Numbered from the stretch's first letter, positions 631 to 44,517 are shown. The stretch: 64,000 nucleotides of DNA from Candidatus Staskawiczbacteria bacterium RIFCSPHIGHO2_02_FULL_42_22 (GCA_001820175.1 MHOT01000010.1:8578-72577); one strand, 5' to 3'. Notes: a model not told the origin generated them from the sequence alone. Made by a program: numbers and translations.

Positions 631-1242
631 TTACTGGCCCCGCGGGGTGCCGATACCCTGTTTTTTTATAATATGCGAAATGAGCGCCGGCGTGGGGAAA
701 AAGACGTTGAACGCCCCTTGACCGTCGTGTTCAGGCACAGCATTGAGCAGGTTCCTGTCCAAAAGCTCACGGATGCCGGTAACCACATAGTCCGGCCCGA
801 ACAAGTAAATTCCACTAAAGGGAATGACTTCCGGTTGGTCAAGATCCGACTGACTGAATTTCGGTTTTTCGGCAAACCATCCCCAGATACCGAATGTCAG
901 AACATTCAGCCAGAACCAACGGTCCATCTGATTACCCCAGACGCGCCGACGGCCGGCATGCTTTTCCTTTGAAGCCGAAAATATTTCACAATCTCGCTTC
1001 ATCATTTCAACCAAAACTCTCCCGCTGACCCCGACCCACTGGTCGAGGTGTTGGGAAAACGAAATGATGCGGGCGGCGGCTTCCTCCTGTTCCGATCGCC
1101 CCAGCACACCGGCAATAAAGTAGTGTCCGATACGGATCTGGCGCGGAGTGCAGGGCATTTCTTCTTCTGCTAAATATAGACCGTCTTGAACACAACGCAT
1201 CGCAGTGTCTCCAAAAGGTACTGATTGGCAAAACGTCTCCAC
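631..1242 (-). CDS. Hypothetical protein (GC-rich orphan)
   Basis: 203-aa ORF with own terminator; no motif I recognise; GC visibly higher than neighbours. Confidence 0.5.
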   Translation of the reverse strand: METFCQSVPFGDTAMRCVQDGLYLAEEEMPCTPRQIRIGHYFIAGVLGRSEQEEAAARIISFSQHLDQWVGVSGRVLVEMMKRDCEIFSASKEKHAGRRRVWGNQMDRWFWLNVLTFGIWGWFAEKPKFSQSDLDQPEVIPFSGIYLFGPDYVVTGIRELLDRNLLNAVPEHDGQGAFNVFFPTPALISHIIKKQGIGTPRGQ

Positions 1243-1373
1243 ATTACTACATCAATTATTATTTGTCAATGTTGCACGATGCCAAAATTTAAGGTAGTAT
1301 TTTTGGTATTACTATTAATTAGCCAGCTGGGGAAATTTTAAAAATATTTTCCGCCTGGCTACATATATTTATT

Positions 1374-2525
1374 ATGAAAGAAGCAGTTTCCAAGCAAAAA
1401 ACGAGCGACTCGGTAATTCCCCCATCTATCGGTTCTATTGTAGAGGGAAAATTAATCGCCCGCGACCGGTCTTCTATTTTTATTGATTTAGGGCCGCAAG
1501 GAACCGGCATCATTTTTGGCCGAGAATTTTATGAGGTAAAAGATGCTATTAAAAACCTACAAATTGGCGATATTATCCACGCCAAAATCGTAGAACTGGA
1601 AAACGAAGAGGGCTACCGCGAATTATCACTGCAAGATGCCACTAAAGATATTAACTGGCAGAAATTACGCGAAATGAAAGATAATCAGGAAATTATCAAG
1701 GTGAAAATCACCGGGGTTAACAAAGGAGGACTGCTTACCAACATCAATAATATTGCGGCTTTCTTGCCGGTATCACAGTTATCTCCAGAAAATTATCCTA
1801 GGGTAACCGATGCCGATAAAGCCAAAATATTAAAAGAACTGCAAAAATTTATTGGCAAAACCTTGGAAGTAAAAGTGCTGGATTTGTTGGCTGAAGAAAA
1901 TAAGCTGATTTTGTCGGAAAAAGCCAAGACCGAACAGGCCATCAAGCAAATGCTCAATAACTACAAAAAGGGAGACGTGGTGGATGGAAAAATTACTGGC
2001 ATTGCTGATTTTGGAGTGTTTATTCGTTTTCCGCTCGCAGCGGAAAACGCGCAGAACAATGCGGAAATTAACCCTCCTTCGCCAGATGCTTCGGCGGGGC
2101 AAGGCGCGGAAAAACGCGGAAAAGACGATAGCATTGAAGGATTAATCCATATTTCTGAATTGGACTGGCAACTAGTTCAAAACCCCTCTGAAATTGTAAA
2201 AGTGGGAGAAATAATAAAAGCGCAGATTATTGATATTCACAATAACCAAGTATTTTTGTCGCTTAAATCGCTAAAAGAAAATCCTTGGGAAAAAATTGAA
2301 AAAGAGCATAAAAAGGGAGACATAATTAAGGGAAAAGTCATCAGTTTTAGCCCATTTGGCGCGTTTGTGGAAGTGATGCCAAAAATCCGGGGCCTCTGCC
2401 ACATTTCCGAATTTGCCAGCCAGAAGGAAATGGAGGACTCGCTAAAACCCGGCGAAATGTACGATTTTGAAATTTTGTTGATTGAACCAAAAGAGCACCG
2501 AATGAGCTTGAAATTGGTAAAATAA
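1374..2525 (+). CDS. rpsA: 30S ribosomal protein S1 (multi S1-domain)
   Basis: Repeated S1 RNA-binding domain signatures (G.IV.G.V..I....IFIDLG, GVFIRF...EGLIHISEL, FGAFVEV...GLCHISEF). Confidence 0.9.
   Translation: MKEAVSKQKTSDSVIPPSIGSIVEGKLIARDRSSIFIDLGPQGTGIIFGREFYEVKDAIKNLQIGDIIHAKIVELENEEGYRELSLQDATKDINWQKLREMKDNQEIIKVKITGVNKGGLLTNINNIAAFLPVSQLSPENYPRVTDADKAKILKELQKFIGKTLEVKVLDLLAEENKLILSEKAKTEQAIKQMLNNYKKGDVVDGKITGIADFGVFIRFPLAAENAQNNAEINPPSPDASAGQGAEKRGKDDSIEGLIHISELDWQLVQNPSEIVKVGEIIKAQIIDIHNNQVFLSLKSLKENPWEKIEKEHKKGDIIKGKVISFSPFGAFVEVMPKIRGLCHISEFASQKEMEDSLKPGEMYDFEILLIEPKEHRMSLKLVK
2031..2124 (+). repeat. In-frame repeat insertion inside an S1 domain (partner copy at 12258-12323)
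   Basis: Encodes AENAQNNAEINPPSPDASAGQGAEKRGKD between FIRFP and IEGLIHISEL; shares atgcggaaattaaccct and gcgcggaaa..cgcggaaaa with the copy in the MutY-like gene. Confidence 0.6.
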
Positions 2526-2578
2526 ATTTTAAGCCACCCACCAAAAAATCCGCTTCTGCGGATTTTTTGGTATAATGA
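2428..2578 (+). repeat. Direct repeat, left copy (authentic rpsA 3' end + terminator + TGGTATAAT)
   Basis: About 150 nt repeated at 3880-4029 with roughly 9 in 10 positions identical by eye. Confidence 0.85.
2543..2568 (+). terminator. rpsA terminator hairpin
   Basis: aaaaaatccgc ttct gcggatttttt. Confidence 0.75.
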
Positions 2579-2585
2579 TACATAT

Positions 2586-3446
2586 ATGAAAAATATTGTA
2601 ATTCCAAAGACAAATAACTCATCTCTTATTGCTCAATTAGGATCTTTTTATAATGCTTTTAAAAATATTACATTTGGAGAAAAAGTAATTATTGATGCAT
2701 CCTCATTGAATTGGGCACATCCTCTTTTAATATTACCTATAAGTGCTTATATTAACGAAACTCGAAGCGAAATCAATACGGATGACTGTAATGGTAATAT
2801 AAAATCATATTTAGAAATGATAAAATTCCCTAAGGGTGTGAATTCTATATCTTCTTTTCAAAAACAAATACAAAAATATAAGACATATATACCCATAAGC
2901 GTCTTACATAAGGAAAGCACTGTTGATAGGGAACGACTAGAATCACTATTTTCTGAAAAAATTTATGAAATTCTCGGGAATATACCAGGAGCCGAAAATG
3001 CAGTATTTTACCCAATATCAGAACTCATAACTAATATTTTTGAACATAGTAAAAAGGAACAGGGTTTTATTTTTGGACAATTTTATCCCAGTAAGAAATA
3101 TTTAGATGTCTGCATCGTTGATTGTGGCAGAGGATTTGCTAAGGCATACAAAGAAGAGCAAAACTTAGAATTATCAGATCAAGAAGCAATAATAGAAGCA
3201 ATGAAGGGTAATTCTATCAAAAAAGACAAAGAAAGAGGTTATGGTTTAAGAACTTCGAAAAACGTGATATGTAAGGCATTAAAGGGTGGAGGATTTATTC
3301 TTATTTCCGGTTCTTCTGCCCTTGTTTCTACAGAACAAGGGGAAAGATTAGTCTATTTAAAAGATTTCTATTGGCAAGGGACTATTATCGCCTATAGAAT
3401 ACCAAAACCCAATGGCCCCATTGACATATCTCCATACATAGAATAA
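2586..3446 (+). CDS. GHKL-type ATPase / RsbW-SpoIIAB-like serine kinase fold protein
   Basis: N-box ELITNIFEHS, G1 box DCGRGF, G2 box GYGLRTS in canonical order; about 27% GC over the first 60 nt. Confidence 0.65.
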   Translation: MKNIVIPKTNNSSLIAQLGSFYNAFKNITFGEKVIIDASSLNWAHPLLILPISAYINETRSEINTDDCNGNIKSYLEMIKFPKGVNSISSFQKQIQKYKTYIPISVLHKESTVDRERLESLFSEKIYEILGNIPGAENAVFYPISELITNIFEHSKKEQGFIFGQFYPSKKYLDVCIVDCGRGFAKAYKEEQNLELSDQEAIIEAMKGNSIKKDKERGYGLRTSKNVICKALKGGGFILISGSSALVSTEQGERLVYLKDFYWQGTIIAYRIPKPNGPIDISPYIE

Positions 3447-3489
3447 CAATATCTATTGTGGTATAATAACATTGAGCAATTAAAGATCT

Positions 3490-3858
3490 ATGAAAAATAA
3501 AAGCCATAATTTCATCACAATTAAGATAAGTAAATTATTGGCTCCTATTATAAGTTCTCGTGATGTAGCCAATGTATTGGAGGATAAAATAAATGAAACT
3601 GATACAACATCAGTAGTTTTGGATTTTAATAATATTAAATTCGTTTCTCGTTCAGCAACTCACTCATTGCTTGTATTGAAAGAAAAAATTGAAACCAATA
3701 TACCTAGGAGAGAATTGTCTTTCATTAATGCTAATAATGATGTTAAAGAAATGATTCGTACCGTAGCATCTAATAGGGCTTTCCCAAAAAAAGAAACGCC
3801 GGAATTTAATCCAGAAAAAACCGACATCGCTTCGCTATTAGAAGAAGCTGCCTTCTAA
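3490..3858 (+). CDS. STAS-like domain protein (DUF4325-like)
   Basis: SRDVANVLEDKI....VVLDFNNIKFVSRSATHSLL pattern typical of STAS-like DUF4325; sits directly after the GHKL gene. Confidence 0.55.
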   Translation: MKNKSHNFITIKISKLLAPIISSRDVANVLEDKINETDTTSVVLDFNNIKFVSRSATHSLLVLKEKIETNIPRRELSFINANNDVKEMIRTVASNRAFPKKETPEFNPEKTDIASLLEEAAF

Positions 3859-3879
3859 TTTTAGGACATTTTATTAAGG

Positions 3880-4029
3880 AGATGGAAGAATCCCTAAAAC
3901 CCGGCGAAACGTACGACTTTGAAATTTTATTGATTGAACCCAAAGAACACCGAATGAGCTTGAAATTGGTAAAATAATGCAATCCGCGCACCCAAAAAAT
4001 CCGCTTCTGCGGATTTTTTGGTATAATGA
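3880..4029 (+). repeat. Direct repeat, right copy (pseudo rpsA 3' end EMEESLKPGETYDFEILLIEPKEHRMSLKLVK* + terminator + TGGTATAAT)
   Basis: Aligns to 2428-2578; no upstream S1 coding sequence, so it is a gene-end remnant. Confidence 0.85.
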
Positions 4030-4033
4030 AACC

Positions 4034-4438
4034 ATGGAAAAAGAAATTATGTATACGGCAAAATTTGTAAGAGATCCTGAATTATTATTAAGAAAATTTC
4101 CACCAAAACATGTTCGTATATTTGCCCATCACTCCACAATTGCTTTTAAACCTAAAAATGTCGATGGCATAGAAATAGGTAGAAAATCGTTGATGAAAAT
4201 CATAGGCCGGGCTTACGATGAAAAAGGCGATGCCCTACTAGTTGAAAATCCCATATCAGAAAATGAATATCCCCACATTACTCTTTCCTGTGCCGATAAC
4301 GTGCCCCCTTTTTACTCAAATGAATTATTGAAAAAAGCTAGTGAAAATAACACGATAGAACATTTTGATGCACCGGAAGAAATTGAAGTGATTGAAGGAT
4401 ATTTCGATGGCAAAAACGAGGTTATTGAAAAAAAATAG
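4034..4438 (+). CDS. Possible 2H-phosphoesterase-like protein
   Basis: Two H-x-T/S-x motifs (AHHSTIAF and PHITLSC) spaced as in 2H/LigT-type enzymes. I start at ATG 4034 because the tracked ORF start (3977) lies in the duplicated terminator. Confidence 0.4.
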   Translation: MEKEIMYTAKFVRDPELLLRKFPPKHVRIFAHHSTIAFKPKNVDGIEIGRKSLMKIIGRAYDEKGDALLVENPISENEYPHITLSCADNVPPFYSNELLKKASENNTIEHFDAPEEIEVIEGYFDGKNEVIEKK

Positions 4439-4448
4439 TAAAATAATA

Positions 4449-4480
4449 CCCCGCCGATTCAACCGAATCAGCGGGGTTTT
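4449..4480. terminator. Bidirectional terminator hairpin between convergent genes
   Basis: ccccgc cgattcaaccgaatca gcgggg tttt. Confidence 0.6.
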
Positions 4481-4482
4481 GG

Positions 4483-5361
4483 TTACGAAACCTTCGAAAC
4501 ATTCACTATCTTGGGCGGGCTCCCATGCTTTTTGCCAAAGGAAACCGCTTCAAAGTAGGAGATCACGTCTCCCCTATGAAGTTGGACGATTCCTTCGGCA
4601 TCCGGCGGTTCCATGACGTCGATGCCATGAACCCATGTACTGGAACCGTCGTGGAGCTTGACAATGCCCTGGCCGGTTTGACCGCCAAAGCACGTATACC
4701 AATCCACGACTGCGAAACCACGATCGGGCACCGGCAGTGGCGGATCCAGTTCTTCGGCCACTCTTCTCCATGGCTGAAGTTCAGCGTCTTGCATAAGTTG
4801 CTGAAAATCAGGCACTTCCAAGATCATTTTACGGGATTCAAACGAACCCCACGTATGGTCTTTGGGCCGGCCGACGACACGAACGCCATCCTGGAAAAGC
4901 TTTCCCTTCCAGCGGTACTCACCGTGGAGCCGCCAGGTCTTGCCGTCGTCGTGGGTGATGATCCCTACTTGGAAAAGCCGGATTGAACCATCATGGTCCA
5001 AATGCCAGCAATCCAAACGGTTGGGATTGTCGCTATGCCAGTTGGTCCAGACGTTTTTTCCCGCGCGCTTGACCTGAATGGGATCGTGCATCATGCATAG
5101 ATCATACCGATCCACCAAATCAGGGAAGTCAGTCAAAGCGTTTTTACTGTAACCTCCCTTTTCCTGGCCGACGTTTTTCTGGACGACGACGGTTCTGCCA
5201 TGCTTTGGCAGGAGCACCGCCAGGTAGAACCCTGTGGGGTTGACACCCCTGGGGACCGAAATGATTCCCTGGTCGCTGACTTCAAGATACGTTTCGATCT
5301 TGTTGGCCAGCGAAACCGAAGCCCGAATATTTGGATCAGTAAAAAAGCGAATCGTTTCCAT
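4483..5361 (-). CDS. Hypothetical protein (GC-rich orphan)
   Basis: 292-aa ORF; about 57% GC in a 60-nt sample; no recognised motif. Confidence 0.5.
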   Translation of the reverse strand: METIRFFTDPNIRASVSLANKIETYLEVSDQGIISVPRGVNPTGFYLAVLLPKHGRTVVVQKNVGQEKGGYSKNALTDFPDLVDRYDLCMMHDPIQVKRAGKNVWTNWHSDNPNRLDCWHLDHDGSIRLFQVGIITHDDGKTWRLHGEYRWKGKLFQDGVRVVGRPKDHTWGSFESRKMILEVPDFQQLMQDAELQPWRRVAEELDPPLPVPDRGFAVVDWYTCFGGQTGQGIVKLHDGSSTWVHGIDVMEPPDAEGIVQLHRGDVISYFEAVSFGKKHGSPPKIVNVSKVS

Positions 5362-11101: not shown

Positions 11102-11209
11102 GTCATTGCGAGCCCGCAGGCGTGGCAATCTCCGTCGTTATGAGTGGAGATTGCTTCGCAGGGTGCAGTACTGTACCCTGCTTCGTCGCTGTGGCTCCTC
11201 GCAATGACG
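11102..11209. repeat. GTCATTGCGAG nested-palindrome repeat, copy R1
   Basis: cgtcattgcgag...gattgcttcg...ctcgcaatgacg. Confidence 0.8.
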
Positions 11210-12680: not shown

Positions 12681-12809
12681 CCCTCACTCTCCTGCACGCA
12701 TCCGTCGTCATTGCGAGGAGCCACAGCAACGAAGCAATCTAGAGCAAAGCTATGCACATACCCTAGATTGCCACGCCTGCGGGCTCGCAATGACGAGAAG
12801 CGTGAGGGA
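12681..12809. repeat. GTCATTGCGAG repeat, copy R2 (outer arms ccctcac/gtgaggg)
   Basis: Read directly. Confidence 0.8.
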
Positions 12810-14448: not shown

Positions 14449-14574
14449 ATGGATCTTCAAATACTATACGAAGATAGTGAAGCGATGGTAATATATAAGC
14501 CAGCGGGAGTGGTTTTTGAAGAAGGGGAAAATCCTTCGACAAACTTAAGTATAAACCAGGGGAAATTATTTTGA
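14449..14574 (+). pseudogene. Orphan 5' fragment of an RluA-family pseudouridine synthase gene
   Basis: Hand translation MDLQILYEDSEAMVIYKPAGVVFEEGENPSTNLSINQGKLF* parallels the N-terminus of the intact gene at 15860 (MELQIPYEDNDMLAIEKPAGVV). Confidence 0.6.
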
Positions 14575-14584
14575 CTCTAACTAT

Positions 14585-14746
14585 TAGACCTGTTGCGTAA
14601 TAAGATTAACAAGCGAAATGAAGCAATTTTGGCTAAAAAATCAGAAAAATAAGGAGGTTTGCCTAGAGGGCAAGCCGACGCATTTTTATGGTTTTTTAGA
14701 CGAAATTGCAAATTACAGCGTAAATTCTTATTACGCAACAGGTCTA
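14585..14746. mobile_element. MITE, TAGACCT family (A1)
   Basis: TIRs tagacctgttgcgtaataag / cttattacgcaacaggtcta; core gaggtttgcctagagggcaagccg shared in reverse with 19656-19862. Confidence 0.8.
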
Positions 14747-14764
14747 TTAAATAATAATTAAATT

Positions 14765-15682
14765 ATGAATCCGGAAAATCTAGAAACTAGAGACCGAAAT
14801 GAGTCCGACTTGGGGGTTATAGTATTTGAAATAGAAAATTTATTGCCTACTCAAAAATTTGATAAAAAAATATTTCCCAGGAACGAAAAACCGATTGGAG
14901 AAATGATGAAGCTTTCAAATGGACTAAGAGAATCAATACTGCCAGAGGGTGGGCTAAACATATCTTCTGCTGATCAGATAGATGAAATAACTTTAGACCT
15001 TTATAATTTATGGAGGGATGCCCAGTTTTCATTGGGATTTCAAAAAATATTAGAAAACAAAAAAATAATTCCACGGGAATCTTTTTTTATCGGAGATATT
15101 GGTTCAGCTCATTGCATATCAGTGGGATTGGCCATGATGAATAACAATATACCTTGTAATTTTGTTTTTAAAAAAGATATAGGACCCAGAGTAAAAGATA
15201 TGATGTTACTTATCGGTGACGAATTAAATAATAGAAATAAAATAACTGTTCCCGCAGGCGCCGCTACATTAACGGATTGCCATCGAAATGAACCCTATAA
15301 ACCGAGGGAGAAAAAATATAGTATTCAACCCTCGGATTTCCCTGCGCCAGAAGAATTAAAAAATAAGGGTATTACACAGATTGTGCTTCTTAAAGAAGTA
15401 GAAACTGGAAGGGAATTTCATAACTTTGAATATCCATCAGACGATAATTCGGTATTGAATCCATATAAATTAAGTGGAATGGAAATTATTACTATAGGAA
15501 TTGATGAGGTATGGCGATACAATTCCGTGCATGGCGGTGAAAAGGATCGCGAACTATTTGGAAGGGACATAAATTCACAGCGTTCTCTTAAAGAAGCATT
15601 AAAATCTATAATTACAGTAGGGGATCGCAAAAAATTATGTGATTTATTGTCTGGTAGAAATATTGAAAAAATTAATCCTTAG
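14765..15682 (+). CDS. Hypothetical protein (low-GC, bracketed by two MITEs)
   Basis: 305-aa ORF; stop codon lies inside the TIR of the next MITE. Confidence 0.5.
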   Translation: MNPENLETRDRNESDLGVIVFEIENLLPTQKFDKKIFPRNEKPIGEMMKLSNGLRESILPEGGLNISSADQIDEITLDLYNLWRDAQFSLGFQKILENKKIIPRESFFIGDIGSAHCISVGLAMMNNNIPCNFVFKKDIGPRVKDMMLLIGDELNNRNKITVPAGAATLTDCHRNEPYKPREKKYSIQPSDFPAPEELKNKGITQIVLLKEVETGREFHNFEYPSDDNSVLNPYKLSGMEIITIGIDEVWRYNSVHGGEKDRELFGRDINSQRSLKEALKSIITVGDRKKLCDLLSGRNIEKINP

Positions 15683-15840
15683 GCCTCGTCCGTAAATAAC
15701 GTCCACCTTTTCATCCAATCTGCCCGCCATCTTGGCTCCAAAAAATGCTCGGCATAACTTTATTATGCCTCACATTTTTTTGAGCCAAGGCGACAGGCAT
15801 CTTGGCGAAAATCCTGGACGTTATTTACGGACGAGGCCTT
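15681..15840. mobile_element. MITE (AGGCCTCGTCCGTAAATAACGTCC TIRs)
   Basis: aggcctcgtccgtaaataacgtcc...ggacgttatttacggacgaggcct. Confidence 0.75.
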
Positions 15841-15859
15841 AGATATTGAAGATATATAA

Positions 15860-16606
15860 ATGGAACTTCAAATACCATATGAAGACAATGATATGCTCGC
15901 CATAGAAAAGCCGGCGGGGGTGGTGGTTTTTAATGAAGCCGCCGCGCCCGCTGGCGCGGCGGCTAAAACAGTCATTGATATGCTTTTAGAAGCGCGTCCT
16001 AACCTAAAAAATGTAGGCGAAGCGCCGCGGTATGGGGTCGTGCATCGGCTCGATAAAGACACCTCCGGCATCCTTTTGGTGGCAAAAACGGCCGATGCCT
16101 TGATTTTTTTGCAAAAACAGTTTAAAAATAGAGAGGTAGAAAAGAAATACACCGCCTTGGTAGAGGGTATCATAAAAGAACCATGGGGTACCATTCATAC
16201 CTTGATGGGTAGGGCTAAAGGGGATCCGCGAAAGCAAAAGGCCTACGCATTGGAATTACCAATATCCAATACCCAATTTCCAAAAAATGTGGCGGGAAAA
16301 AGAGAAGCCATTACCGATTATAACGTATTGAAAAAATTTACTGGTTATGCGTTACTGGAAGTTAAGATAAAAACTGGCCGAAAACACCAGATACGCTGCC
16401 ATTTAGCGTATATTCATCATCCGGTAGCCGGAGACACATTGTATGGATTTAAAGATTCACCGGTGCCAAAGGGGTTAGCAAGACAATTTCTGCATGCATC
16501 ATATTTAAAAATTACATTACCAAGCGGAGAAACTAAAGAATTTAAGTCGGAATTACCAGAAGAGTTGCAAACAATAATTAAGAATATGGAATCTGGTATC
16601 TTGTAG
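15860..16606 (+). CDS. RluA-family pseudouridine synthase (no S4 domain)
   Basis: KPAGVVV, catalytic HRLDKDTSG, GRKHQIRCHL. Confidence 0.85.
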   Translation: MELQIPYEDNDMLAIEKPAGVVVFNEAAAPAGAAAKTVIDMLLEARPNLKNVGEAPRYGVVHRLDKDTSGILLVAKTADALIFLQKQFKNREVEKKYTALVEGIIKEPWGTIHTLMGRAKGDPRKQKAYALELPISNTQFPKNVAGKREAITDYNVLKKFTGYALLEVKIKTGRKHQIRCHLAYIHHPVAGDTLYGFKDSPVPKGLARQFLHASYLKITLPSGETKEFKSELPEELQTIIKNMESGIL

Positions 16607-16688
16607 CTGGAATAGAATGCGGAATAAAGAATTCTGAATTCAACATTCGATTCAAGCTACCAGATACAAGATTCAAGATACAAGTTTT

Positions 16689-17117
16689 ATGTCAATAAAA
16701 TTACAAACATTTAATAAGGCACAAGAAAAACAAATGCCGGATATCCGCCCTGGCGATACGGTTCGCGTACACCAAAAAATAAAAGAAGGCGACAAGGAAA
16801 GAATCCAAATTTTTGAAGGCATCGTTATTGCCCGAAAACATGGCAAGGGAATTTCCAGCACCATTACTGTGCGAAAAGTGGTTGACCAAGTTGGCGTGGA
16901 ACGGATTTTCCCAGTACACTCGCCATCGCTTGCCAAAATAGAAGTGACAAAATCCAGCAGCGTGCGCAGGTCAAAACTGTACTACCTCAGAACCGCCAAA
17001 GGCGCTAAAGGAAAATTAAAGAATAAAGAATTAGCCGCGGCTATTGCACCGGAAGAAAAACCGGTTATGGAAACACTTATGGAAGCTCCACAAGAATCAG
17101 CTCCAGAAACAAAATAA
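16689..17117 (+). CDS. rplS: 50S ribosomal protein L19
   Basis: [30 protein letters not shown]...T.TVRK. Confidence 0.9.
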
Positions 17118-17169
17118 ATAGCGGAGTCTGGTATACGCCGACACCTTGAGGTATAATAGAATAATATCT

Positions 17170-17814
17170 ATGAAACCTTTAGGAAAAGTTAAAATTATAT
17201 GGACGCCACAGTTTGCTTATGCGATAGGGTTATTGACTACTGATGGCAGTCTTTCAATTGACGGACGCCATATAAGTTTTACATCTAAAGACAAACAGCA
17301 GGTTGATAATTATAAGCTTTGCTTTGGTCTTGAAAATAAAATTGGAAAAAAGGCGAGAGGAGGAGAAACGGAAAAAAAATACTATGTATTACAGTTCGGA
17401 GATGTGAATTTTTACCGGTTTTTATTAGGCATTGGATTGACGCCAAACAAATCTAAAACACTTGGAAGTTTAAAGGTTCCCGAAAGATATTTCTTTGACT
17501 TTCTAAGAGGACATTTGGATGGGGACGGTTATTTTTATTCCTATTGGGATCCACGCTGGAAGTCGAGCTTCATGTTTTACATAGGTTTTATTTCTGCAAG
17601 TAAAAATCATATTGAATGGCTCAGGGATAATATTGCAAAAAAGTTGGGAATAAAGGGCCATATTACAGCGAGTATTAGTAGTTCAGTTTATCAGTTAAAG
17701 TACGCTAAAACTGAAACGCTAAAATTATTACCCAAATTATACTATAGCGAAAATGTCGTCTGTTTAGATAGGAAACGTAAAAAGATTGAAAAAGCTTTGT
17801 TGATTGTGAGATAA
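17170..17814 (+). CDS. LAGLIDADG homing endonuclease (free-standing)
   Basis: YAIGLLTTDGSL and LRGHLDGDGYF motifs; ATG 17170 preferred because GGTATAAT (-10) lies inside the tracked 5' extension. Confidence 0.8.
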   Translation: MKPLGKVKIIWTPQFAYAIGLLTTDGSLSIDGRHISFTSKDKQQVDNYKLCFGLENKIGKKARGGETEKKYYVLQFGDVNFYRFLLGIGLTPNKSKTLGSLKVPERYFFDFLRGHLDGDGYFYSYWDPRWKSSFMFYIGFISASKNHIEWLRDNIAKKLGIKGHITASISSSVYQLKYAKTETLKLLPKLYYSENVVCLDRKRKKIEKALLIVR

Positions 17815-17825
17815 AAATAAAATGC

Positions 17826-17910
17826 GCGCGGGTGGAGAAATTGGTAAACTCGCCAGCTTGAGGTGTTGGTGCCGCAAGGCATGCAGGTTCGACTCCTGTC
17901 CCGCGCACCA
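17826..17910 (+). tRNA. tRNA-Leu, anticodon GAG (CCA encoded)
   Basis: Acceptor GCGCGGG/CCCGCGC, anticodon stem CCAGC/GTTGG, loop TTGAGGT, long variable arm. Confidence 0.8.
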
Positions 17911-17959
17911 CGAATAGAACTTGGTACAATAAAGACACATGTTCTCCTATAAAATTTAC

Positions 17960-18032
17960 GGACGATTAGCTCAATTGGCAGAGCGACTGATTTACACTCA
18001 GTAGGTTGCAGGTTCGAGTCCTGCATCGTCCA
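17960..18032 (+). tRNA. tRNA-Val, anticodon UAC
   Basis: Acceptor GGACGAT/ATCGTCC, anticodon stem ACTGA/TCAGT, loop TTTACAC, T arm GCAGG-TTCGAGT-CCTGC. Confidence 0.85.
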
Positions 18033-18035
18033 CAA

Positions 18036-18162
18036 ATGCAGGAATCGAACCCAAATCACCCCGTGTAGGAAAATATTAAAAACCGAGGGTTTTTAAAGTC
18101 GGGGGTCGGGGTGATTTGAAAAGGTTCTAGCGAAGCGGAGTCCTGCATCGTCCACCCTTTTA
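18036..18162. repeat. Inverted-repeat element built from tRNA-Val T-arm/acceptor-like ends
   Basis: tgcaggaatcgaacccaaatcaccccg ... cggggtgatttgaaaaggttctagcgaagcggagtcctgcatcgtccac; the right end repeats the last 18 nt of the tRNA. Confidence 0.6.
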
Positions 18163-18215
18163 TTGTTAAACCGCTATGTTATAATATAAGCATAATATAA
18201 CTAACAGGTTTGATT

Positions 18216-18878
18216 ATGAAACTTGAAGAAAAAAATTTAGCAATACATTTACGAAAACTAGGATGGTCAATGAATGAAATCAAAAGTAAAATAGGGGTTT
18301 CCAAAAGTAGTGTTAGTTTGTGGGTAAGAGATATACAGCTCACCGATAATCAAAAAATGAAACTGTCCCAAAAAGGACTAACAAAAGAGTCAATTGAAAA
18401 AAGGAGAACAACCAGACTTGGCAGAGAAAACGCACGAAGACAAATTATTGTTGATGGTGCTAAAAAAGAAATACCTGGTTTATCAGACCAAGAGTTAAAG
18501 CTTGTAGGAATAGCTTTATATTGGGGAGAGGGAGGAAAAGCTAATCGTGGGTCGGTCCAATTATCAAACGGAGACCCCCGGATTATACAGTTGATGATGA
18601 AGTTTTTCAAAAGAGTTTGCAAAGTACCTAAAGAAAAATTTAGAGGACACATCCATATACATCCCCACCTTAACGTAAAAAAATCAGAACATTACTGGTC
18701 GTCCATCTCCGGCATTCCGTTAAACCAATTTTATAAAACCTACTCTAAGCCAAATAAAAGTAGTCAAAGCAAAAAGAATTCATTGCCATTTGGAACATTT
18801 GATATTTACGTACACAACACTGAACTATTTTTGAAAATTAAAGGGTGGATCGAAGCTGTATATGATAATGTTATTTAG
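18216..18878 (+). CDS. HTH + LAGLIDADG-like (GLYWGEGGK) endonuclease-like protein
   Basis: N-terminal HTH (LGWSMNEIKSKIGVSKSSVSLWV), LVGIALYWGEGGK motif; paralog at 52223-52912. Confidence 0.45.
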   Translation: MKLEEKNLAIHLRKLGWSMNEIKSKIGVSKSSVSLWVRDIQLTDNQKMKLSQKGLTKESIEKRRTTRLGRENARRQIIVDGAKKEIPGLSDQELKLVGIALYWGEGGKANRGSVQLSNGDPRIIQLMMKFFKRVCKVPKEKFRGHIHIHPHLNVKKSEHYWSSISGIPLNQFYKTYSKPNKSSQSKKNSLPFGTFDIYVHNTELFLKIKGWIEAVYDNVI

Positions 18879-18884
18879 AAATCC

Positions 18885-18956
18885 GCCGTGGTAGCTCATT
18901 GGTAGAGCAGACGCCTGAAGAGCGCCTGGTAGGGAGTTCGATTCTCCCCCGCGGCA
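18885..18956 (+). tRNA. tRNA-Phe, anticodon GAA
   Basis: Acceptor GCCGTGG/CCGCGGC, loop CTGAAGA, T arm GGGAG-TTCGATT-CTCCC; one A-C mispair in the anticodon stem. Confidence 0.7.
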
Positions 18957-19002
18957 CCCTTATTTTATAAGTGGATAGATTTATAAAAGAATTTTAGATA
19001 AT

Positions 19003-19073
19003 GCGGGTATAGCACAATGGTAGTGCATTTGGTTGCCAATCAAAGTACAGGGGTTCGATTCCCCTTACCCGCT
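19003..19073 (+). tRNA. tRNA-Gly, anticodon GCC
   Basis: Acceptor GCGGGTA/TACCCGC, loop TTGCCAA, T arm AGGGG-TTCGATT-CCCCT. Confidence 0.8.
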
Positions 19074-19174
19074 CAAAATTTTCCGAGAAAATTTTGAGCG
19101 AGGTTCGCCCTTTTTGGGCGACCCGCTCTCAATTAAAAAATTTGAGCACAAATTTTTGACCGAGAATTGTACTA

Positions 19175-19337
19175 TAGACCTACTGCGTAAAGATTTTTCT
19201 ACTGCGCCGCGCATATTTTGGCTGCGAAAAGCCAATCGCTCATCGACAGATTTAAGTTCAATATGCCTCTTCGCGCTTTGCTTTTCTCGCTACAAAATAT
19301 GCGCGGCTCGCTACGAAAACCTTTACGCAGTAGGTCT
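19175..19337. mobile_element. MITE, TAGACCT family (B1)
   Basis: tagacctactgcgtaaag...ctttacgcagtaggtct; reverse-oriented near-identical copy at 38291-38454 (both yield the same 40-aa pseudo-peptide in the ORF track). Confidence 0.85.
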
Positions 19338-19351
19338 TATCTATTTCCTGT

Positions 19352-19609
19352 ATGTTTTATATTTATATTCTCCAAAGTCTCAAAGATAGTAAAACTTACG
19401 TTGGATATACGAATAACCTGGAAAGAAGATTAGTTGAACATAATTCTGGAAAAAATATTACTACGAGAAATCGCACACCATTAGAATTGCTATTTTCTGA
19501 AAATTTTGAAACCTCAAAAGAGGCAAGAGAAAGAGAATTGTATTGGAAAAGCGGAGGCGGAAGAAGAAAGTTAAAAGAGTTTTTTGAAAAAGGTTTTCCA
19601 GTCACTTGA
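19352..19609 (+). CDS. GIY-YIG nuclease domain protein
   Basis: FYIYILQS..DSKTYVGYTNNLERRLVEHN. Confidence 0.8.
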   Translation: MFYIYILQSLKDSKTYVGYTNNLERRLVEHNSGKNITTRNRTPLELLFSENFETSKEARERELYWKSGGGRRKLKEFFEKGFPVT

Positions 19610-19655
19610 GTCGCCTTTTGGGCGATTTTTTAGTGGTTATTCTAAAATTTTACAA

Positions 19656-19862
19656 TAGACCTGTCCCTAAATAAGAATTTACGCTGCAATTTGCAGTTTT
19701 GGCCCGAGACGCAGGCGTAATTGGCCGCGGCCAATTCGCCCCGTCTGGAGCAAACCTGCTAAAATTCATCGGCTTGCCCTCTAGGCAAACCTCTTCATTT
19801 TATCAGATTTTCGCTCAAAACTGCTGCGTTTCGCTTGTTAATTTTATTTAGGGACAGGTCTA
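19656..19862. mobile_element. MITE, TAGACCT family (A2)
   Basis: tagacctgtccctaaataag...cttatttagggacaggtcta. Confidence 0.8.
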
Positions 19863-19983
19863 ATGTAAAACCGCGAGGCGCGACTTTTCGGAACGGACGG
19901 AACGGTTCCCCCCTTACAAAAACAATGGGCCGCGCTTCGCGCGGCCGTCCAACTCGTCGGTCGAAAATCAAAAAGTTTTATAG

Positions 19984-21539
19984 TGGAGTACATTTACAAC
20001 GAGGATCGAACCCATTTTATGGAGAACGAGTGAAGAACGCCGCGCGCCTGCGGGCGCGCGGCACGACGAACGAACGGCAACCGCACGGACAGGCAAAAAT
20101 TTTCTCCCCCAGACCAGAATTTTTGCGTGCTTGCCAAAAAACTTTTTGTGATTTTATGTTTTTTATGATAGTATCAAGGTAAAATTATGCCAGAAAATAT
20201 TGGGGAAAAATTGTCATCCGCGGACGAAAAAGAACCAACTACGAAAGAGTTGGAAATTCCAAAATCAGCTTCCGATGAAGTAAATCCGCGCAAAAAACGC
20301 ACAACCGATCTTGCCCCGCCCGTAGAAATACAGGCGAAATTGGAAAAGGAAGTAGAAGATCTTTCTAAAGAAGAAATAGAGAGGATTATGGAAAAGGTGG
20401 AAGACATTAATTCTATGGGAACAACGAGCCATGCAGTGCGAGAGGGTAGCGGTTATGTCTCAGCCAAATCTCCTGAGAGCAAAAAAAGGAGAAATTTTAA
20501 TATCCTTTCTAATATCCTTAACCATGGCATTATTGGTGGTCCAAGGAACTGGAATGATGCGGATTTTTTGAGTAACGAAAAAAGTATAAAAGCTATTTTT
20601 AAAAACCTATCATATGCTAGACGCGCGGGTCATGGTTGGCCTACTTTCGTTGTCGATATAAATGAATTGCCTTCCGATAGGCCATTTTCTAGAGTTGGGT
20701 GGATAGGAGAAAATGGTATTGCACTTATTGTTGATAAAGAATTTGCAAAAACCAAACGAGATAGGTTGTATAAAAAACGTATCTATAGTAGGGGTGGAAA
20801 GGAAAAGAGCGGTAATACTACAACTTCAACAAGAATTCCCCCGAGGTTTATTAAGGGTATTGTTATTAATCCCGTGGCCAGTGTTAAAGCTATAGAAGAA
20901 GAGTCAAAAATTTTAGAAAAACGAGAAAATATTATCAATGAAATATTGGAATTGCGAAAATTTCTGTATTCACAAGTAGAGAAGCAACTTGGAGATAAAA
21001 CAAAATTTATTGTATCTATCACGGATGAGGTCAAAAAAAGTCATAGTGATGTTATGTTGAAATTAAAGGAGTTAAATTTGCAAATTGCATTAGTTTATAA
21101 GGAAATTGAAAAGATTAACCCTGATCTCTATCATCAATTACATTATCCAAAAATTCTAAATCCGTTCACGCAGCCAGAAAATAAAGATGTACAGTCCTTT
21201 TTTGAGGAAGTTATAAAAACGGAACGACAAAGCAATGTACTGTTACCCATTTATAGTCTGGATGGTGATTTATTGTGGCCAAAAAAGATGAATTATGAAG
21301 AAGTAAAAAAGTTTGTTGAAGAAAGAGAAAAAGTAAAAGAGAAAGGCGAGCAGTAGAATAATTCCATAAAATCACAAAAAGTTTTTTGGCAAGCACGCAA
21401 AAATTCTGGTCTGGGGGAGAAAATTTTTGCCTGTCCGTGCGGTTGCCGTTCGTTCTTCGTGCCGCGCGCCCGCGGGCGCGCGGCGTTCGTCACTCGTTTT
21501 CCATAAAATGAGTTCGATCCTCGTTGTAAATGTACTCCA
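19984..21539. mobile_element. Single-ORF element bounded by 175-bp terminal inverted repeats (19984-20158 and 21365-21539)
   Basis: Arms differ at about 5 internal positions by eye; each arm holds the palindrome gccgcgcgcc(t/c)gcgggcgcgcggc; spurious ORFs 19835-20182(+) and 21293-21493(-) share the peptide ERQPHGQAKIFSPRPEFLRACQKTFCDFM. Confidence 0.8.
20187..21356 (+). CDS. Hypothetical protein carried between the 175-bp inverted repeats
   Basis: 389-aa ORF, acidic/lysine-rich N- and C-termini, no transposase motif I recognise. Confidence 0.55.
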   Translation: MPENIGEKLSSADEKEPTTKELEIPKSASDEVNPRKKRTTDLAPPVEIQAKLEKEVEDLSKEEIERIMEKVEDINSMGTTSHAVREGSGYVSAKSPESKKRRNFNILSNILNHGIIGGPRNWNDADFLSNEKSIKAIFKNLSYARRAGHGWPTFVVDINELPSDRPFSRVGWIGENGIALIVDKEFAKTKRDRLYKKRIYSRGGKEKSGNTTTSTRIPPRFIKGIVINPVASVKAIEEESKILEKRENIINEILELRKFLYSQVEKQLGDKTKFIVSITDEVKKSHSDVMLKLKELNLQIALVYKEIEKINPDLYHQLHYPKILNPFTQPENKDVQSFFEEVIKTERQSNVLLPIYSLDGDLLWPKKMNYEEVKKFVEEREKVKEKGEQ

Positions 21540-21571
21540 GTTTCTTTGTCATTTTACGATGAGGAAAAAAT

Positions 21572-21913
21572 ATGAAAATTCCAGAAAAAGTTCCACAAAA
21601 AGGTTTTTACTATCATTACAAGCACAATCAAAATGGCTTAGTGAATAACTACGCCTACGAGGTGATTGGTGTGGGTTGCCATACCGAAGATGAGTGTCGG
21701 CCAGAAGATGCCAATATGGTTGTTTATCGTCCACTCTACGAAACTTTTGTTTACACTGCAGGGAAATTGTTTGACCTGCGCCCCTTGGAAATGTGGATGG
21801 GTAATGTTTCCAAGGATGGAGCTACCGCTCCTCGATTCACAAAAATTACGGATCTTTCGGTAATTGGAAAACTTGAAGAAATAAAGAAACAAATGTACGG
21901 TTCTCATAATTAG
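21572..21913 (+). CDS. DUF1653-like protein
   Basis: GFYYHYKH......YEVIGVG.HTE.....MVVYRPLY pattern. Confidence 0.55.
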   Translation: MKIPEKVPQKGFYYHYKHNQNGLVNNYAYEVIGVGCHTEDECRPEDANMVVYRPLYETFVYTAGKLFDLRPLEMWMGNVSKDGATAPRFTKITDLSVIGKLEEIKKQMYGSHN

Positions 21914-22214
21914 ACCTGTTGCGTATTAAGGATTTGCTGCAAATTGCATATTGCACCTGCGGGGATGCCCTGCGGGTCAAGGGCTGAAAATTTGCTATAC
22001 CTAGTATAATTTGTCGCTCGTTCGAAAAAGAATAATTGCTATTCTTCTTTTTCTCTCTCGCTTAGCAAATTATAATTTTTCGGTCAAGATGTGGGTAAAT
22101 TTGTAGCAACAAATTTCCCCATCTCCGGGCCTATGGGCAAGCCGAAAAATTCTATCAAATTTGCAGCTCGAAATCTTGAATTTTCGTAACAAACCTTATT
22201 TAGGGACAGGTCTA
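21911..22214. mobile_element. Chimeric/nested MITE, TAGACCT family (A3)
   Basis: Left TIR of the gttgcgtattaag type, right TIR of the ccctaaataag type; carries an extra about 80-nt module that recurs inverted at about 44360-44440. Confidence 0.75.
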
Positions 22215-26104: not shown

Positions 26105-26292
26105 AGGGTAACCCCTCTGTTCACCACCGTCATTGCGAGGAGTCCTGAACCGGAGACGGGGCGAATTTGTTGCGACAAATTACGCCTCGCGTCTGGACAG
26201 TGAAGGGCGACGTGGCAATCTCGTCGTTGTGTACGGAGATTGCTTCGTCATCTGCGCCTTCCTCGCAATGACGGTAGGTGCGAGGGGGTTAC
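26105..26292. repeat. GTCATTGCGAG repeat, copy R3 (outer arms gggtaacccctc/gagggggttac)
   Basis: Read directly. Confidence 0.8.
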
Positions 26293-38290: not shown

Positions 38291-38454
38291 AAGACCTACT
38301 GCGTAAAGGTTTTCGTAGCGAGCCGCGCATATTTTGTAGCGAGAAAAGCAAAGCGCGAAGAGGCATATTGAACTTAAATCTGTCGATGAGCGATTGGCTT
38401 TTCGCAGCCAAAATATGCGCGGCGCAGTAGAAAAATCTTTACGCAGTAGGTCTT
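38291..38454. mobile_element. MITE, TAGACCT family (B2), inverted copy of 19175-19337
   Basis: aagacctactgcgtaaag...ctttacgcagtaggtct, begins 15 nt after the pilin stop. Confidence 0.85.
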
Positions 38455-39698: not shown

Positions 39699-39900
39699 TA
39701 GACCTGTTGCGTATTAAGGATTGTCGCGAAAATTGAAGATTTTGGATCAGAAATTTGATAGAATTTTTCGGCTTGCCTCCAGGCCCGGAGATGGGGAAAT
39801 TTGTTGCTACAAATTTACCCACATCTTGACCGAAAAATTATTGAAAATTTCTGGCCAAAAGATGCAATTTGCAGCAAATCCTTAATACGCAACGGGTCTA
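39699..39900. mobile_element. MITE, TAGACCT family (A4); inverted relative to A3 and lacking its nested module
   Basis: tagacctgttgcgtattaagg...ccttaatacgcaacgggtcta; starts 2 nt after the pilin stop. Confidence 0.8.
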
Positions 39901-44188: not shown

Positions 44189-44261
44189 TAGAAAATCTAA
44201 ATCCTAAATTCTAAACTCTAAATTCTAAAACGGTTAGAGTTTAGAATTTGTTTGCAAACCG

Positions 44262-44498
44262 TGAATCACGAAATGCTTTCGAGGGATTTTCTCCAAATTT
44301 TGAGCGAAAATGTGATAGAATTCTGAGGCATAGCAAGCTCTGCCGAAGAATTATAATTTGCTAAGCGAGAGAGAAAAAGAAGAATAGCAATTATTCTTTT
44401 TCGAACGAGCGACAAATTATACTAGGTATAGCGCATTTGCAGCCAAAATTTGGAGAAAAGACCCGAAAAGTCTTTTCAAACTGGCATTTCGTGATTCA
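44262..44498. mobile_element. MITE (TGAATCACGAAATGC TIRs) sharing an internal module with 21911-22214
   Basis: tgaatcacgaaatgc...gcatttcgtgattca; the internal ataatttgctaagcgagagagaaaaagaagaatagcaattattc... is the reverse complement of 22000-22080. Confidence 0.75.
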
Positions 44499-44517
44499 AG
44501 GTTTAAGCAAAAGTATT

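Follow-up and report, generated by a model that had tools for sequence, protein, structure and literature searches.

Palindromic repeats with AGACCT ends in a Candidatus Staskawiczbacteria scaffold: probable non-autonomous relatives of an IS5-family insertion sequence

Elements in the window

The window analysed here is a stretch of 64,000 nt from Candidatus Staskawiczbacteria bacterium RIFCSPHIGHO2_02_FULL_42_22 (MHOT01000010.1:8578-72577). Among its genes, which include pilin-like ORFs, a DUF1653 gene, an ATPase gene and a GIY-YIG gene, lie eight bounded elements, E1 to E8, that an earlier note had placed from the sequence and that are present where it put them (Table 1). They are 160-302 nt long and non-coding, the ORFs of about 40-70 codons that cross them being spurious. 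Six (E1 and E3-E7) have AGACCT...AGGTCT ends, and E2 and E8 are two further palindromic elements. The inverted terminal arms match over 20-45 nt, with the exception of E5, which carries two end variants. A family profile, for which 32 relatives from other genomes were used, matches E1 and E3-E7 with E values from 2e-33 to 3e-8; the match of E1 covers positions 1-158 (E = 1.8e-33), E3, of a divergent subfamily, matches at E = 3e-8, and E2 has no match to the profile. The octamer WAGACCTR occurs 16 times in the window versus 3.9 ± 2.0 times in shuffled sequence, and 0 of 100 shuffles attain 16. Twelve of these sites mark both ends of E1, E3, E4, E5 and E6, and one end of E7; the opposite end of E7 deviates and reads GACCCG. 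Isolated octamers at 4934, 23926, 46255 and 55608 are at chance level. So is the one at 61923, once read as a solo end: it matches only TAGACCTGTT and yields no blastn or profile match.

Table 1. Positions of the elements in the window, with their ends and bordering repeats
Feature	Position	Strand	Description	Ends	Bordering repeats
E1	14586..14745	+	160-nt MITE, canonical family length	AGACCTGTTGCGTAATAAG	ATT (14583-14585, 14746-14748)
E2	15681..15840	.	160-nt near-perfect palindrome	AGGCCTCGTCCGTAAATAACG	ambiguous; TTA/TTA only with GGCC taken as element start
E3	19176..19337	-	162-nt MITE, divergent subfamily	AGACCTACTGCGTAAAG	TAT each side
E4	19657..19861	-	205-nt MITE	GTCCCTAAATAAG type at both ends	AAT each side
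E5	21912..22213	-	302-nt chimeric MITE	left GTTGCGTATTAAGG type, right GTCCCTAAATAAGG type	ATT versus AAT
Nested palindromic module in E5	21982..22083	.	102 nt (blastn)		
E6	38292..38453	+	162-nt MITE, identical to E3		TAA each side
E7	39700..39899	.	200-nt MITE	AGACCTGTTGCGTATTAAGG and AGACCCGTTGCG	AAT each side
E8	44259..44501	.	243-nt member of a second MITE family	CCTTGAATYACGAAATGC	

The copies are related to one another in a patchwork fashion. E1 shares 82-86% identity with copies from another MAG and 83% with E4 across 104 nt. At 19700-19760, E4 has a GC-rich palindrome of about 60 nt in place of the roughly 16 nt found there in E1, and this extra segment is similar by blastn to 26154-26194 of the window. 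E5 is 88% identical to E7 across 144 nt; its nested module is missing from E7, its nearest relative, and shares 96% identity with 44343-44444 inside E8. The arms of E2 (80 nt each) are 79% complementary, its ends lie near the GTCCCTAAATAAG variant with one extra base, and it has one other copy (locus L028, 4637-4840). E3 and E6, previously described as nearly identical, are in fact 100% identical across 162 nt in opposite orientation and have similar flanks (TTGTACTAT versus TTTTACTTA), an identity that lends support to recent activity. E8 had been called a related MITE with other terminal repeats. By its ends it belongs to a different family, and its interior is homologous to the AGACCT core (profile positions 19-102 align to 44275-44356, E = 6e-7). 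Ten of 13 members of the E8 family match the AGACCT-family core (E = 3e-12 to 2e-4). A 7-bp duplication, usual in relatives and perfect in six of 14 E8-type elements, is missing from E8 itself.

Target-site duplication and a transposase-bearing partner

The ends were originally read as TAGACCT. The element starts with AGACC, and the leading T or A is the final base of a 3-bp target-site duplication, so that the apparent TAGACCT...AGGTCTA arises from the duplicated target. Identical triplets flank five of the six AGACCT-ended copies in the window, all but E5; a clean duplication is missing from E2, E5 and E8. A 20-nt end pattern scanned in one genome per species detects the same ends in at least 95 loci, mostly in MAGs of Patescibacteria/CPR and also in cyanobacteria. 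Restriction of the copies to the window, named earlier as an outcome that would speak against a mobile family, is thus not observed. Among the matches listed, element lengths group at 139-141 nt and at 157-162 nt, five further elements measure 1,023-1,057 nt, and the end motif of the family is (A/G)G(A/G)CCTGTT, the element ends being also written AGACCTGTTGC. An identical 3-bp flank is present in 60 of the 74 paired elements among the matches listed (AAT 28, ATT 26, AGT 4), whereas flanks of 2, 4 or 5 bp match in none of the 74. Several window copies also permit a reading in which TA flanks each end (TA/GACC...GGTC/TA), as expected of Stowaway-like MITEs of the IS630/Tc1-mariner type inserting at TA. 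However, E3 and E6 are incompatible with TA, and the partner transposase described below belongs to DDE_Tnp_4 and is not of the mariner type. The duplication count and the transposase family together refute this reading, which has next to no probability left.

A search for an autonomous element with the same ends, proposed in the earlier note, was successful and identifies an insertion sequence of about 1 kb encoding a DDE transposase. The five long elements among the matches listed (about 1.03-1.06 kb) encode proteins of 305-312 aa with DDE_Tnp_4 and HTH_Tnp_4 domains. Their ends are AGACCTGT(T/C)(G/C)C..AATAAG, and elements of 1,022-1,055 bp with these ends have AAT or ATT duplicated. The match to DDE_Tnp_4 is strong (E = 1e-21 to 5e-24; 77-85 bits against a Pfam curated cut-off of 24.8), and in one of the transposases (L087) HTH_Tnp_4 reaches 40 bits, above its cut-off of 27. 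Candidate catalytic residues D147, D222 and E268 are invariant across six transposases. Relatives of the protein form more than 7,000 clusters (90% identity) at E <= 1e-10, mostly on contigs of about 1 kb. With the NCBIfam IS5 equivalog models the transposase scores 50-70 bits (transpos_IS5_4), below the cut-off of 140. It would belong to a distinct IS5 subgroup, and a guess from the 3-bp repeat is that this is ISL2-like or IS1031-like. The identification of an insertion sequence of Nostoc punctiforme (L106) as ISNpu3 is withdrawn.

The partner occurs close to the host of the window. Sample ERZ28563803, from which the scaffold of the window (scaffold_881) derives, also contains, on scaffold_2835, an intact copy of 1,054 bp that has these ends and a duplicated AAT; the common origin does not assign the two to the same genome. 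Another copy, in a Patescibacteria assembly, disrupts a gene and is flanked by duplicated AAT. The GTCCCTAAATAAG end variant of E4 also closes a partial transposase-bearing insertion sequence in a Staskawiczbacteria MAG (L088). As previously remarked, the window itself has no such transposase by tblastn, and none was found in the 7.5 kb of scaffold upstream of it. The interior of the MITEs is unrelated to that of the insertion sequence, the ends alone being held in common. This IS5-family element of about 1 kb, present in the aquifer sample from which the window also comes, is probably able to mobilise the MITEs.

The same evidence bears on two other proposals. The elements are palindromes placed immediately behind stop codons, and GTTGCGT and ACGCAAC within their ends loosely resemble, by eye, the core sites of integron attC. 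This could suggest REP/BIME-like palindromes served by a RAYT (an IS200/IS605-type tyrosine transposase), or attC-like sites following gene cassettes. Such an identity is most improbable: target duplications flank the elements, their ends are common to a DDE insertion sequence, they measure 160-300 nt and not 20-40, the copies are dispersed between unrelated housekeeping genes, and a non-exhaustive Pfam scan of 10 window ORFs gave no tyrosine transposase or integrase. The second proposal is a local duplication or assembly artefact limited to the scaffold of the window. Short contigs from several assemblies do break within E3, which is the expected effect of genuine dispersed identical repeats. 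The same arrangement recurs in independent assemblies from several samples and the family is found in dozens of other genomes, observations that refute an artefact and leave it a negligible chance.

Hairpin core and possible host function

Copies of about 160 nt fold along their whole length into a hairpin, in which compensatory variation is strong. In the family alignment 94.1% of cells are paired versus 35-43% when the partners are slid; double changes are seen in 26 of 41 hairpin pairs, and the covariation score is 0.439 versus 0.05-0.09. The predicted RNA folds reach -77.3 kcal/mol for E1 (z = -14.6) and -71.6 kcal/mol for E3 (z = -9.3). The centre of E2 has a terminator-like hairpin on both strands (15751-15769) and resembles a bidirectional terminator.

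These properties raise the possibility that the elements, or their hairpin core of about 90-120 nt, are kept for a function in the host or its transcripts, for example as bidirectional transcription terminators or 3′-end stabilisers between tightly packed genes, transposition serving for delivery only. The compensatory variation extends beyond the transposase-binding ends, into helices 2 and 3. The core is 82-89% identical across MAGs labelled as different candidate phyla, and one core is combined with two unrelated sets of ends. Elements follow genes, convergent pairs outnumbering divergent ones by 13 to 4. A hairpin-plus-T-run rule is satisfied by the core of E4 and the centre of E2, and under a relaxed rule a terminator-like site is present in 29 of 73 elements versus 8.6 ± 2.6 in shuffles. 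The standard rule, however, yields only 10 of 73 versus 5.3 ± 2.2, and any palindrome exceeds shuffles on hairpin counts. Next to tandem genes the elements point either way equally often (11 to 11). This random orientation speaks against an RNA specific to one strand, but a symmetric terminator would be compatible with it. The downstream gene mostly begins only 10-19 nt past the element, as fits the passive filling of spacers. With the covariance models of Rfam 15 only tRNAs attain the gathering score in the window, and no match at E <= 1 falls within 19600-21700. The covariation itself could stem from a DNA process that symmetrises palindromes, or transposition could demand it. A retained host function is therefore unlikely, although it keeps considerably more weight than the other alternatives to a transposon-derived family.

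Stop codons, recombination and known relatives

The association of the elements with stop codons holds up well. Of twenty long ORFs that enter element ends, six stop at a TAG at the junction, two at -2 and nine at +12 or +15, with three ending deeper. In the window the TAG of the DUF1653 gene (21911-21913) joins the final base of the bordering repeat to the opening AG of E5; the TAG that closes ORF 14765-15682 runs into the start of E2; and the TAA (39695-39697) of a pilin-like ORF ending at 39697 overlaps the left AAT copy of E7. E6 begins 15 nt past the stop of another pilin-like ORF at 38276, and the GIY-YIG gene starts 14 nt from the end of E3. Apparent gene starts are extended by elements, as had been suspected: the TTG 'starts' at 22161 and 44437 fall inside E5 and E8. 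The ATPase gene called downstream of E5 has an ATG at 22224, 10 nt beyond the element, and the first in-frame ATG past E8 is at 44519. Two of the three frames meet a stop codon in the element ends, and this accounts for genes terminating at the border of an element or a little way in. These built-in stops, together with the survival of insertions into very short spacers, suffice for the link, and targeting of stop codons is not required.

Neither an empty site nor an excision footprint was found. Each contig of the same population bears the copies, so insertion polymorphism cannot be demonstrated as an empty site, and in the nearest relatives (75-77% ATPase identity) the upstream region is not syntenic and offers no empty site. 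A strain variant (L209) breaks exactly at E7, where a chimeric copy has a new left neighbour and unequal triplets. Together with the identity of E3 and E6, this copy at a strain breakpoint supports mobility indirectly. E5, with its hybrid ends, is a second chimera. As each derives from two copies, the elements also serve as substrates for recombination.

A single DDE_Tnp_4 and HTH_Tnp_4 transposase in an insertion sequence of about 1 kb resembles the IS5 type related to PIF/Harbinger. Like the MITEs of IS5/PIF-Harbinger (plant Tourist and mPing), the present ones are short non-coding derivatives that share only ends with the insertion sequence and duplicate 3 bp of A/T target. Tourist ends are of the GGCCTTGTT type, which the (A/G)G(A/G)CCTGTT motif recalls; the PIF/Harbinger target is TWA and that of the present family A(A/T)T. 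Unlike in Tourist and mPing, the core is a conserved long hairpin unrelated to the interior of the insertion sequence. No description of these MITEs was found in the literature on this group of bacteria with tiny genomes (Patescibacteria/CPR).

Among bacterial repeats, the MITE Nezha of cyanobacteria (Zhou et al. 2008, summarised in PMC3184786 and PMC6042816) is similar in its size of 130-170 bp, stable predicted hairpin and A+T-rich insertion sites. Its hosts are cyanobacteria of the Nostoc/Anabaena type, where relatives of the present family occur too. The direct repeat given for its reference copy is 10 bp (CATTATCTAC; PMC6042816) and not 3 bp, which sets it apart as far as that description goes. 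Correia of Neisseria and RUP, BOX and SPRITE of Streptococcus pneumoniae are likewise hairpin MITEs of 100-160 nt that cluster and nest; they are located at gene ends and can bear terminator-like hairpins (PMC10969869). They differ in ends, target duplication and host phyla, and for the present family a matching autonomous insertion sequence is identified. REP/BIME sequences are also extragenic palindromes in many copies, but their size (20-40 bp), missing target duplication and link to a tyrosine transposase, as given in PMC3733652, do not apply here.

The flagged repeats are thus genuine miniature transposons, an ordinary kind of element, and their assignment as non-autonomous MITEs of an IS5-family insertion sequence has a probability of roughly 0.87. 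The one gene of the autonomous partner encodes a transposase in which an N-terminal helix-turn-helix accompanies a DDE_Tnp_4 catalytic domain. This protein would bind the inverted ends of about 20 bp in any element bearing them, mobilise the MITEs in trans and insert them at A/T targets of 3 bp, usually AAT or ATT, that become duplicated on each side. The interior of the MITE is a separate core of about 120 nt, folding with the ends into a single long hairpin kept by compensatory changes. Mobility in this lineage is deduced from these features, as are its timing and whatever influence it has on adjacent genes. Reading inward, two of three frames are closed within about 15 nt, by T plus AG at the junction and by TAA in GCGTAA or GCGAAATAA. 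Surviving insertions would be those that fall within the short gap separating a stop codon from the following start, or that trim a gene's final codons and provide a new stop. In a compact genome, copies with stops in their ends may thus survive at gene ends and come to abut or supply stop codons, and the dispersed copies recombine with one another to give chimeric copies and strain-level rearrangements.

Elements of the window and their target sites

The motif WAGACCTR occurs at 16 sites in the window compared with 3.9 ± 2.0 in dinucleotide shuffles, none of which reaches 16. Twelve of these sites are element ends and the remaining four are isolated, at chance level. The eight bounded elements described in the earlier note lie where it placed them. 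The leading T/A that it counted into the repeat is target DNA, because reading from AGACC, where the elements start, gives identical flanking triplets. The supposed solo end at 61923 is not an element end; it has only TAGACCTGTT in common with the family, with neither a blastn nor a family-profile match. Copies do occur in both orientations, E3 and E6 being inverted relative to each other and 100% identical by blastn against the window. By the same comparison E1 shares 83% identity with E4 (104 nt) and E5 shares 88% with E7 (144 nt). E5 also holds a 102-nt insert with 96% identity to the inner part of E8, which is a member of a second MITE family. Each element matches its own reverse complement over its full length (70-77%, blastn), and the window elements are long imperfect palindromes, more than inverted ends alone. 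The fold of E1 has -77 kcal/mol (z = -14.6) and that of E3 -72 kcal/mol (z = -9.3).

Features of the window, with flanking triplets read from AGACC
Feature	Position	Flanks	Character
E1	14586-14745	ATT / ATT	AGACCT family
E2	15681-15840		palindrome, ends near the GTCCCTAAATAA variant
E3	19176-19337	TAT / TAT	AGACCT family
E4	19657-19861	AAT / AAT	AGACCT family
E5	21912-22213	ATT / AAT, unequal	AGACCT family
E6	38292-38453	TAA / TAA	AGACCT family
E7	39700-39899	AAT / AAT	AGACCT family
E8	44259-44501		second MITE family
Third palindromic element	51915-52098		184 nt, perfect 29-nt ends ATATGGACATCACATCCAGAAACCGCACT
Fourth family, copies	11102-11208, 12707-12794, 26129-26272, 43219-43306		bounded by CGTCATTGCGAG...CTCGCAATGACG
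Fourth family, single ends	29742, 33507, 39951, 51905		
Pilin-spacer tracts	36856-37419, 38470-38600, 39070-39200, 41288-41480, 44200-44250		short tandem motifs
Short ORF	14450-14575		41 codons
ORF before E2	14765-15682		
Pseudouridine synthase gene	15860-16606		
LAGLIDADG-type ORF	17146-17814		
HTH ORF	18210-18878		weak match
GIY-YIG ORF	19352-19609		free-standing nuclease, 85 aa
GC-rich segment	19864-19988		125 nt
Cassette inverted repeats	19984-20158 / 21365-21539		175 nt, 97% complementary
Cassette ORF	20187-21356		389 aa
DUF1653 gene stop	21911-21913		

The target-site duplication that the earlier note proposed to look for is 3 bp long. Among the matches listed in a wider scan, 74 paired elements have both ends (three mismatches allowed), and 60 of them carry the same triplet on either side (AAT 28, ATT 26, AGT 4, GGT 1, ATA 1). 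None of the 74 fits a direct repeat of 2, 4 or 5 bp. The A-N-T target preference is real because the search pattern fixes just one of the three target bases per element. An initial reading as a TA duplication (IS630-like) was ruled out by the flank count; the elements are neither mariner-type MITEs with a TA duplication nor REP/RAYT elements, and no Rfam family matches them. In E5 the two ends also differ (left GTTGCGTATTAAGG, right GTCCCTAAATAAGG). The interpretation as MITEs is supported, every feature of such elements having been found but a demonstrated empty site: copies are present on every contig of this population that several samples and assemblers yielded, and exact-protein look-ups around the elements returned colinear contigs of that population only. 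The ATPase next to E5 has its nearest metagenome relatives at 75-77% identity, and these are not syntenic upstream.

Distribution of the family and its autonomous partner

The window belongs to scaffold_881 of a Rifle aquifer metagenome (sample ERZ28563803). Confinement of the copies to this stretch, which the earlier note held would count against its reading, was not found: a scan with TAGACCTGTYSCKWAWTAAG of one genome per species (596 Gb) places the family in at least 95 genome stretches elsewhere. Roughly 30 matches to this pattern are estimated to arise by chance in a search space of that size, and inverted pairs with a spacing of 140-160 nt cannot come about in this way. Many matches fall in Patescibacteria MAGs (Staskawiczbacteria, Saccharibacteria, Falkowbacteria, Nealsonbacteria, Roizmanbacteria, Gracilibacteria and Parcubacteria), others in cyanobacteria (Aphanocapsa, Nostoc, Leptolyngbya and Acaryochloris) and in a few bins with labels of other phyla. 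Among the matches listed, a single Staskawiczbacteria MAG has 15 loci with at least 15 complete copies, and the copies closest to those of the window are in Parcubacteria-type MAGs. The lengths of the paired elements listed cluster around 139-141 nt in cyanobacteria and 157-162 nt in Patescibacteria (more than 40); some are of 180-264 nt and five of 1,023-1,057 nt.

Each long element carries one protein of 305-312 aa with Pfam domains DDE_Tnp_4 (E = 1e-21 to 5e-24) and HTH_Tnp_4, which matches the NCBIfam IS5-family models solely below their cut-offs. The search for an autonomous element with the same ends thus succeeded, including in the window's own sample, where an intact IS on scaffold_2835 encodes the transposase P0040. 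This IS is 1,054 bp long, reads AGACCTGTTGCTTAATAACGAT...GAATTCTTATTAAGCAACAGGTCT between two AAT triplets and has housekeeping genes on either side. Residues D147, D222 and E268 (P0040 numbering) are invariant in all six transposases aligned. An IS copy in a Patescibacteria assembly interrupts a gene with AAT duplicated, and a Staskawiczbacteria IS fragment ends in the GTCCCTAAATAA variant, as do E4 and the right end of E5. Relatives of the transposase form more than 7,000 clusters (90% identity) at E <= 1e-10 in a protein search. Most members lie on contigs of about 1 kb, typical of assembly-breaking repeats, and some are named Patescibacteria transposases.

The window itself lacks a matching transposase, as had been noticed (tblastn best E = 1.1), and so do the 7.5 kb of scaffold upstream of it. 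The 389-aa ORF was rejected as the missing transposase: Pfam gives no match, homologues are almost absent and its ends are of another kind. MITEs and IS match over only ~20-35 nt at each end, with dissimilar interiors, and an origin of the MITEs by internal deletion of the IS was rejected since the ends alone match. These observations support the view that the elements behave as classical MITEs served by a transposase of the IS5 family, related to PIF/Harbinger. Identity with Nezha/ISNpu3, assumed from a related IS on a Nostoc punctiforme plasmid, was dropped: the account of the reference Nezha copy in PMC6042816 gives a 10-bp direct repeat, in contrast to the 3-bp duplication of the AGACCT family. 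By blastn, neither E1 nor a cyanobacterial copy matches any of 72,556 plasmids.

Hairpin core, further repeats and the 14-22 kb stretch

One similarity cluster holds 53 short elements including E1, E4, E5 and E7, and a profile of 32 copies of ~160 nt also finds E3 and E6 (E = 3e-8). The alignment fits a single hairpin from the ends through to a central stem-loop, with 94.1% of hairpin cells paired; sliding the 3′ partners by 1-3 columns lowers this to 35-43%. Two-sided changes are seen in 26 of 41 hairpin pairs. Covariation scores 0.439, compared with 0.05-0.09 after sliding the partners and 0.149 after shuffling. Compensatory changes peak in the central helices, away from the ends that the transposase binds. 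Two accounts would fit: the fold is important, to transposition or to the host, or the symmetry of the arms is maintained by a process acting on the DNA. G.U cells outnumber A.C cells by 82 to 22, a count dominated by two columns. Copies share 82-89% identity even between MAGs with labels of different candidate phyla, which is far above neutral expectation at such distances and suggests horizontal spread or constraint.

The E8 family, with ends CCTTGAATTACGAAATGC, is common in the same MAGs and usually ~171 nt long. A 5-bp duplication read by eye gave way on systematic counting to one of 7 bp, perfect in 6 of 14 copies. Ten of 13 members have a match to positions ~34-125, the inner part of the AGACCT-family profile (E = 3e-12 to 2e-4), and therefore one core of ~90-120 nt carries either AGACCT ends with a 3-bp duplication or CCTTGAAT ends with a 7-bp duplication. 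The joining of one core to two unrelated end sets is the least ordinary result. That the core is a selected module with at least two end sets, spread horizontally across the ultra-small candidate phyla and acting as a symmetric terminator or an RNA-processing and insulation signal between packed genes, is an unlikely reading, to which roughly one chance in eight may be given.

At least four families of small palindromic repeats occupy the short spacers of this one 64-kb stretch. The ends of E2 are near the GTCCCTAAATAA variant, its target duplication is ambiguous, and just one further copy of it was found. The third palindromic element has an 89% identical copy in a Staskawiczbacteria MAG (L061 763-946) and no clear target duplication. 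In the fourth family the 10-mer TCGCAATGAC occurs 12 times (0.08 expected). Two copies flank a 155-aa ORF and a HhH-GPD glycosylase gene, single ends adjoin E7 and the third element, and the interior of the third copy in the table resembles an extra segment in E4. Short tandem motifs, among them GTCAAATGTCAAA, TTTCAAATT and TCTAAATTCTAAA, fill the spacers of the pilin-like genes, with inverted blocks flanking the genes.

The stretch at 14-22 kb is a general hotspot of selfish elements. Long inverted repeats enclose the 389-aa ORF; contig L005 has this segment in the opposite orientation with respect to the DUF1653 gene, and in contig L007 its left neighbour is another one, with the junction exactly at 19986. 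The segment (19984-21539) looks like an invertible or mobile cassette. The GC-rich segment between E4 and this cassette is 94% identical to L053 3954-4078, directly after a tRNA-Gly in a Saccharibacteria-labelled MAG; one of its stems shows a compensatory change (GGCCGCGCG vs GGCGGCGCG), with a fold z of about -1.5 and no Rfam match. The 41-codon ORF just before E1 resembles the N-terminus of the pseudouridine synthase gene (MDLQILYEDSEAMVIYKPAGVV vs MELQIPYEDNDMLAIEKPAGVV), and E1, an unknown 305-aa ORF and E2 separate this fragment from the full gene, a layout (14450-16606) that suggests an old rearrangement or insertion. The LAGLIDADG-type, HTH (E = 0.0012, below the Pfam cut-off) and GIY-YIG ORFs occur within a row of tRNA genes and between E3 and E4.

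Gene context, recombination and meaning

The proposed link to stop codons is borne out. The stop of the DUF1653 gene is the junction TAG of E5, that of the ORF before E2 overlaps the E2 start, and the E7 duplication overlaps a TAA stop. On entry into an element, whichever the side, one reading frame is closed by T+AG at the junction and a second by the TAA of GCGTAA or GCGAAATAA, which lies at +12 or +15. Among the matches listed, open frames of at least 80 codons enter the element at 20 of 146 ends, stopping at the junction TAG (6), at -2 (2), at +12/+15 (9) or deeper (3). The downstream gene starts 10-19 nt past E1, E2, E3, E5 and E8, and the elements therefore fill nearly the whole spacer. 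Across genomes the gene context is tandem in 22 cases, convergent in 13 and divergent in 4, and element orientation relative to tandem genes is split 11 to 11 (both among the matches listed). This pattern fits targeting of A/T triplets followed by survival of insertions sparing genes and promoter regions, and it speaks against a strand-specific RNA; such a function was rejected because element orientation is random with respect to transcription. The standard hairpin-plus-T-run rule is satisfied by 10 of 73 elements (5.3 ± 2.2 in shuffles), a weak indication of a terminator role.

Contig L209 (ERZ27254767 k141_2439332) is colinear with the window from 39690 onward, and in its positions 1-4700 UvrA and PaaX (PaaX_M) genes replace the pilin-like cluster of the window. 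The break coincides with the left edge of E7. The L209 copy has seven differences from E7 in the left ~60 nt and is identical over the right ~140 nt, with ATT as its left flank and AAT as its right flank, a pattern that marks an exchange by recombination between dispersed copies. E5, in which hybrid ends go with ATT/AAT flanks, seems to be an earlier product of the same process.

The concept of a MITE is unchanged by any of these findings. Patescibacteria (CPR) are regarded as streamlined, with genomes of ~1 Mb, and full-text searches of open-access papers and bioRxiv preprints yielded no account of MITEs from Patescibacteria or from the candidate phyla radiation. The main points are how densely a small genome is packed with elements, the core common to two end types and the spread over lineages, together with the tie of the AGACCT family to a very widespread IS5-type transposase. 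The MITEs fragment metagenome assemblies (several short contigs end within E3), give rise to false ORF starts and short pseudo-peptides, provide genuine stop codons and mediate strain rearrangements. Their high likeness across distant lineages could trace the exchange of DNA among these organisms.
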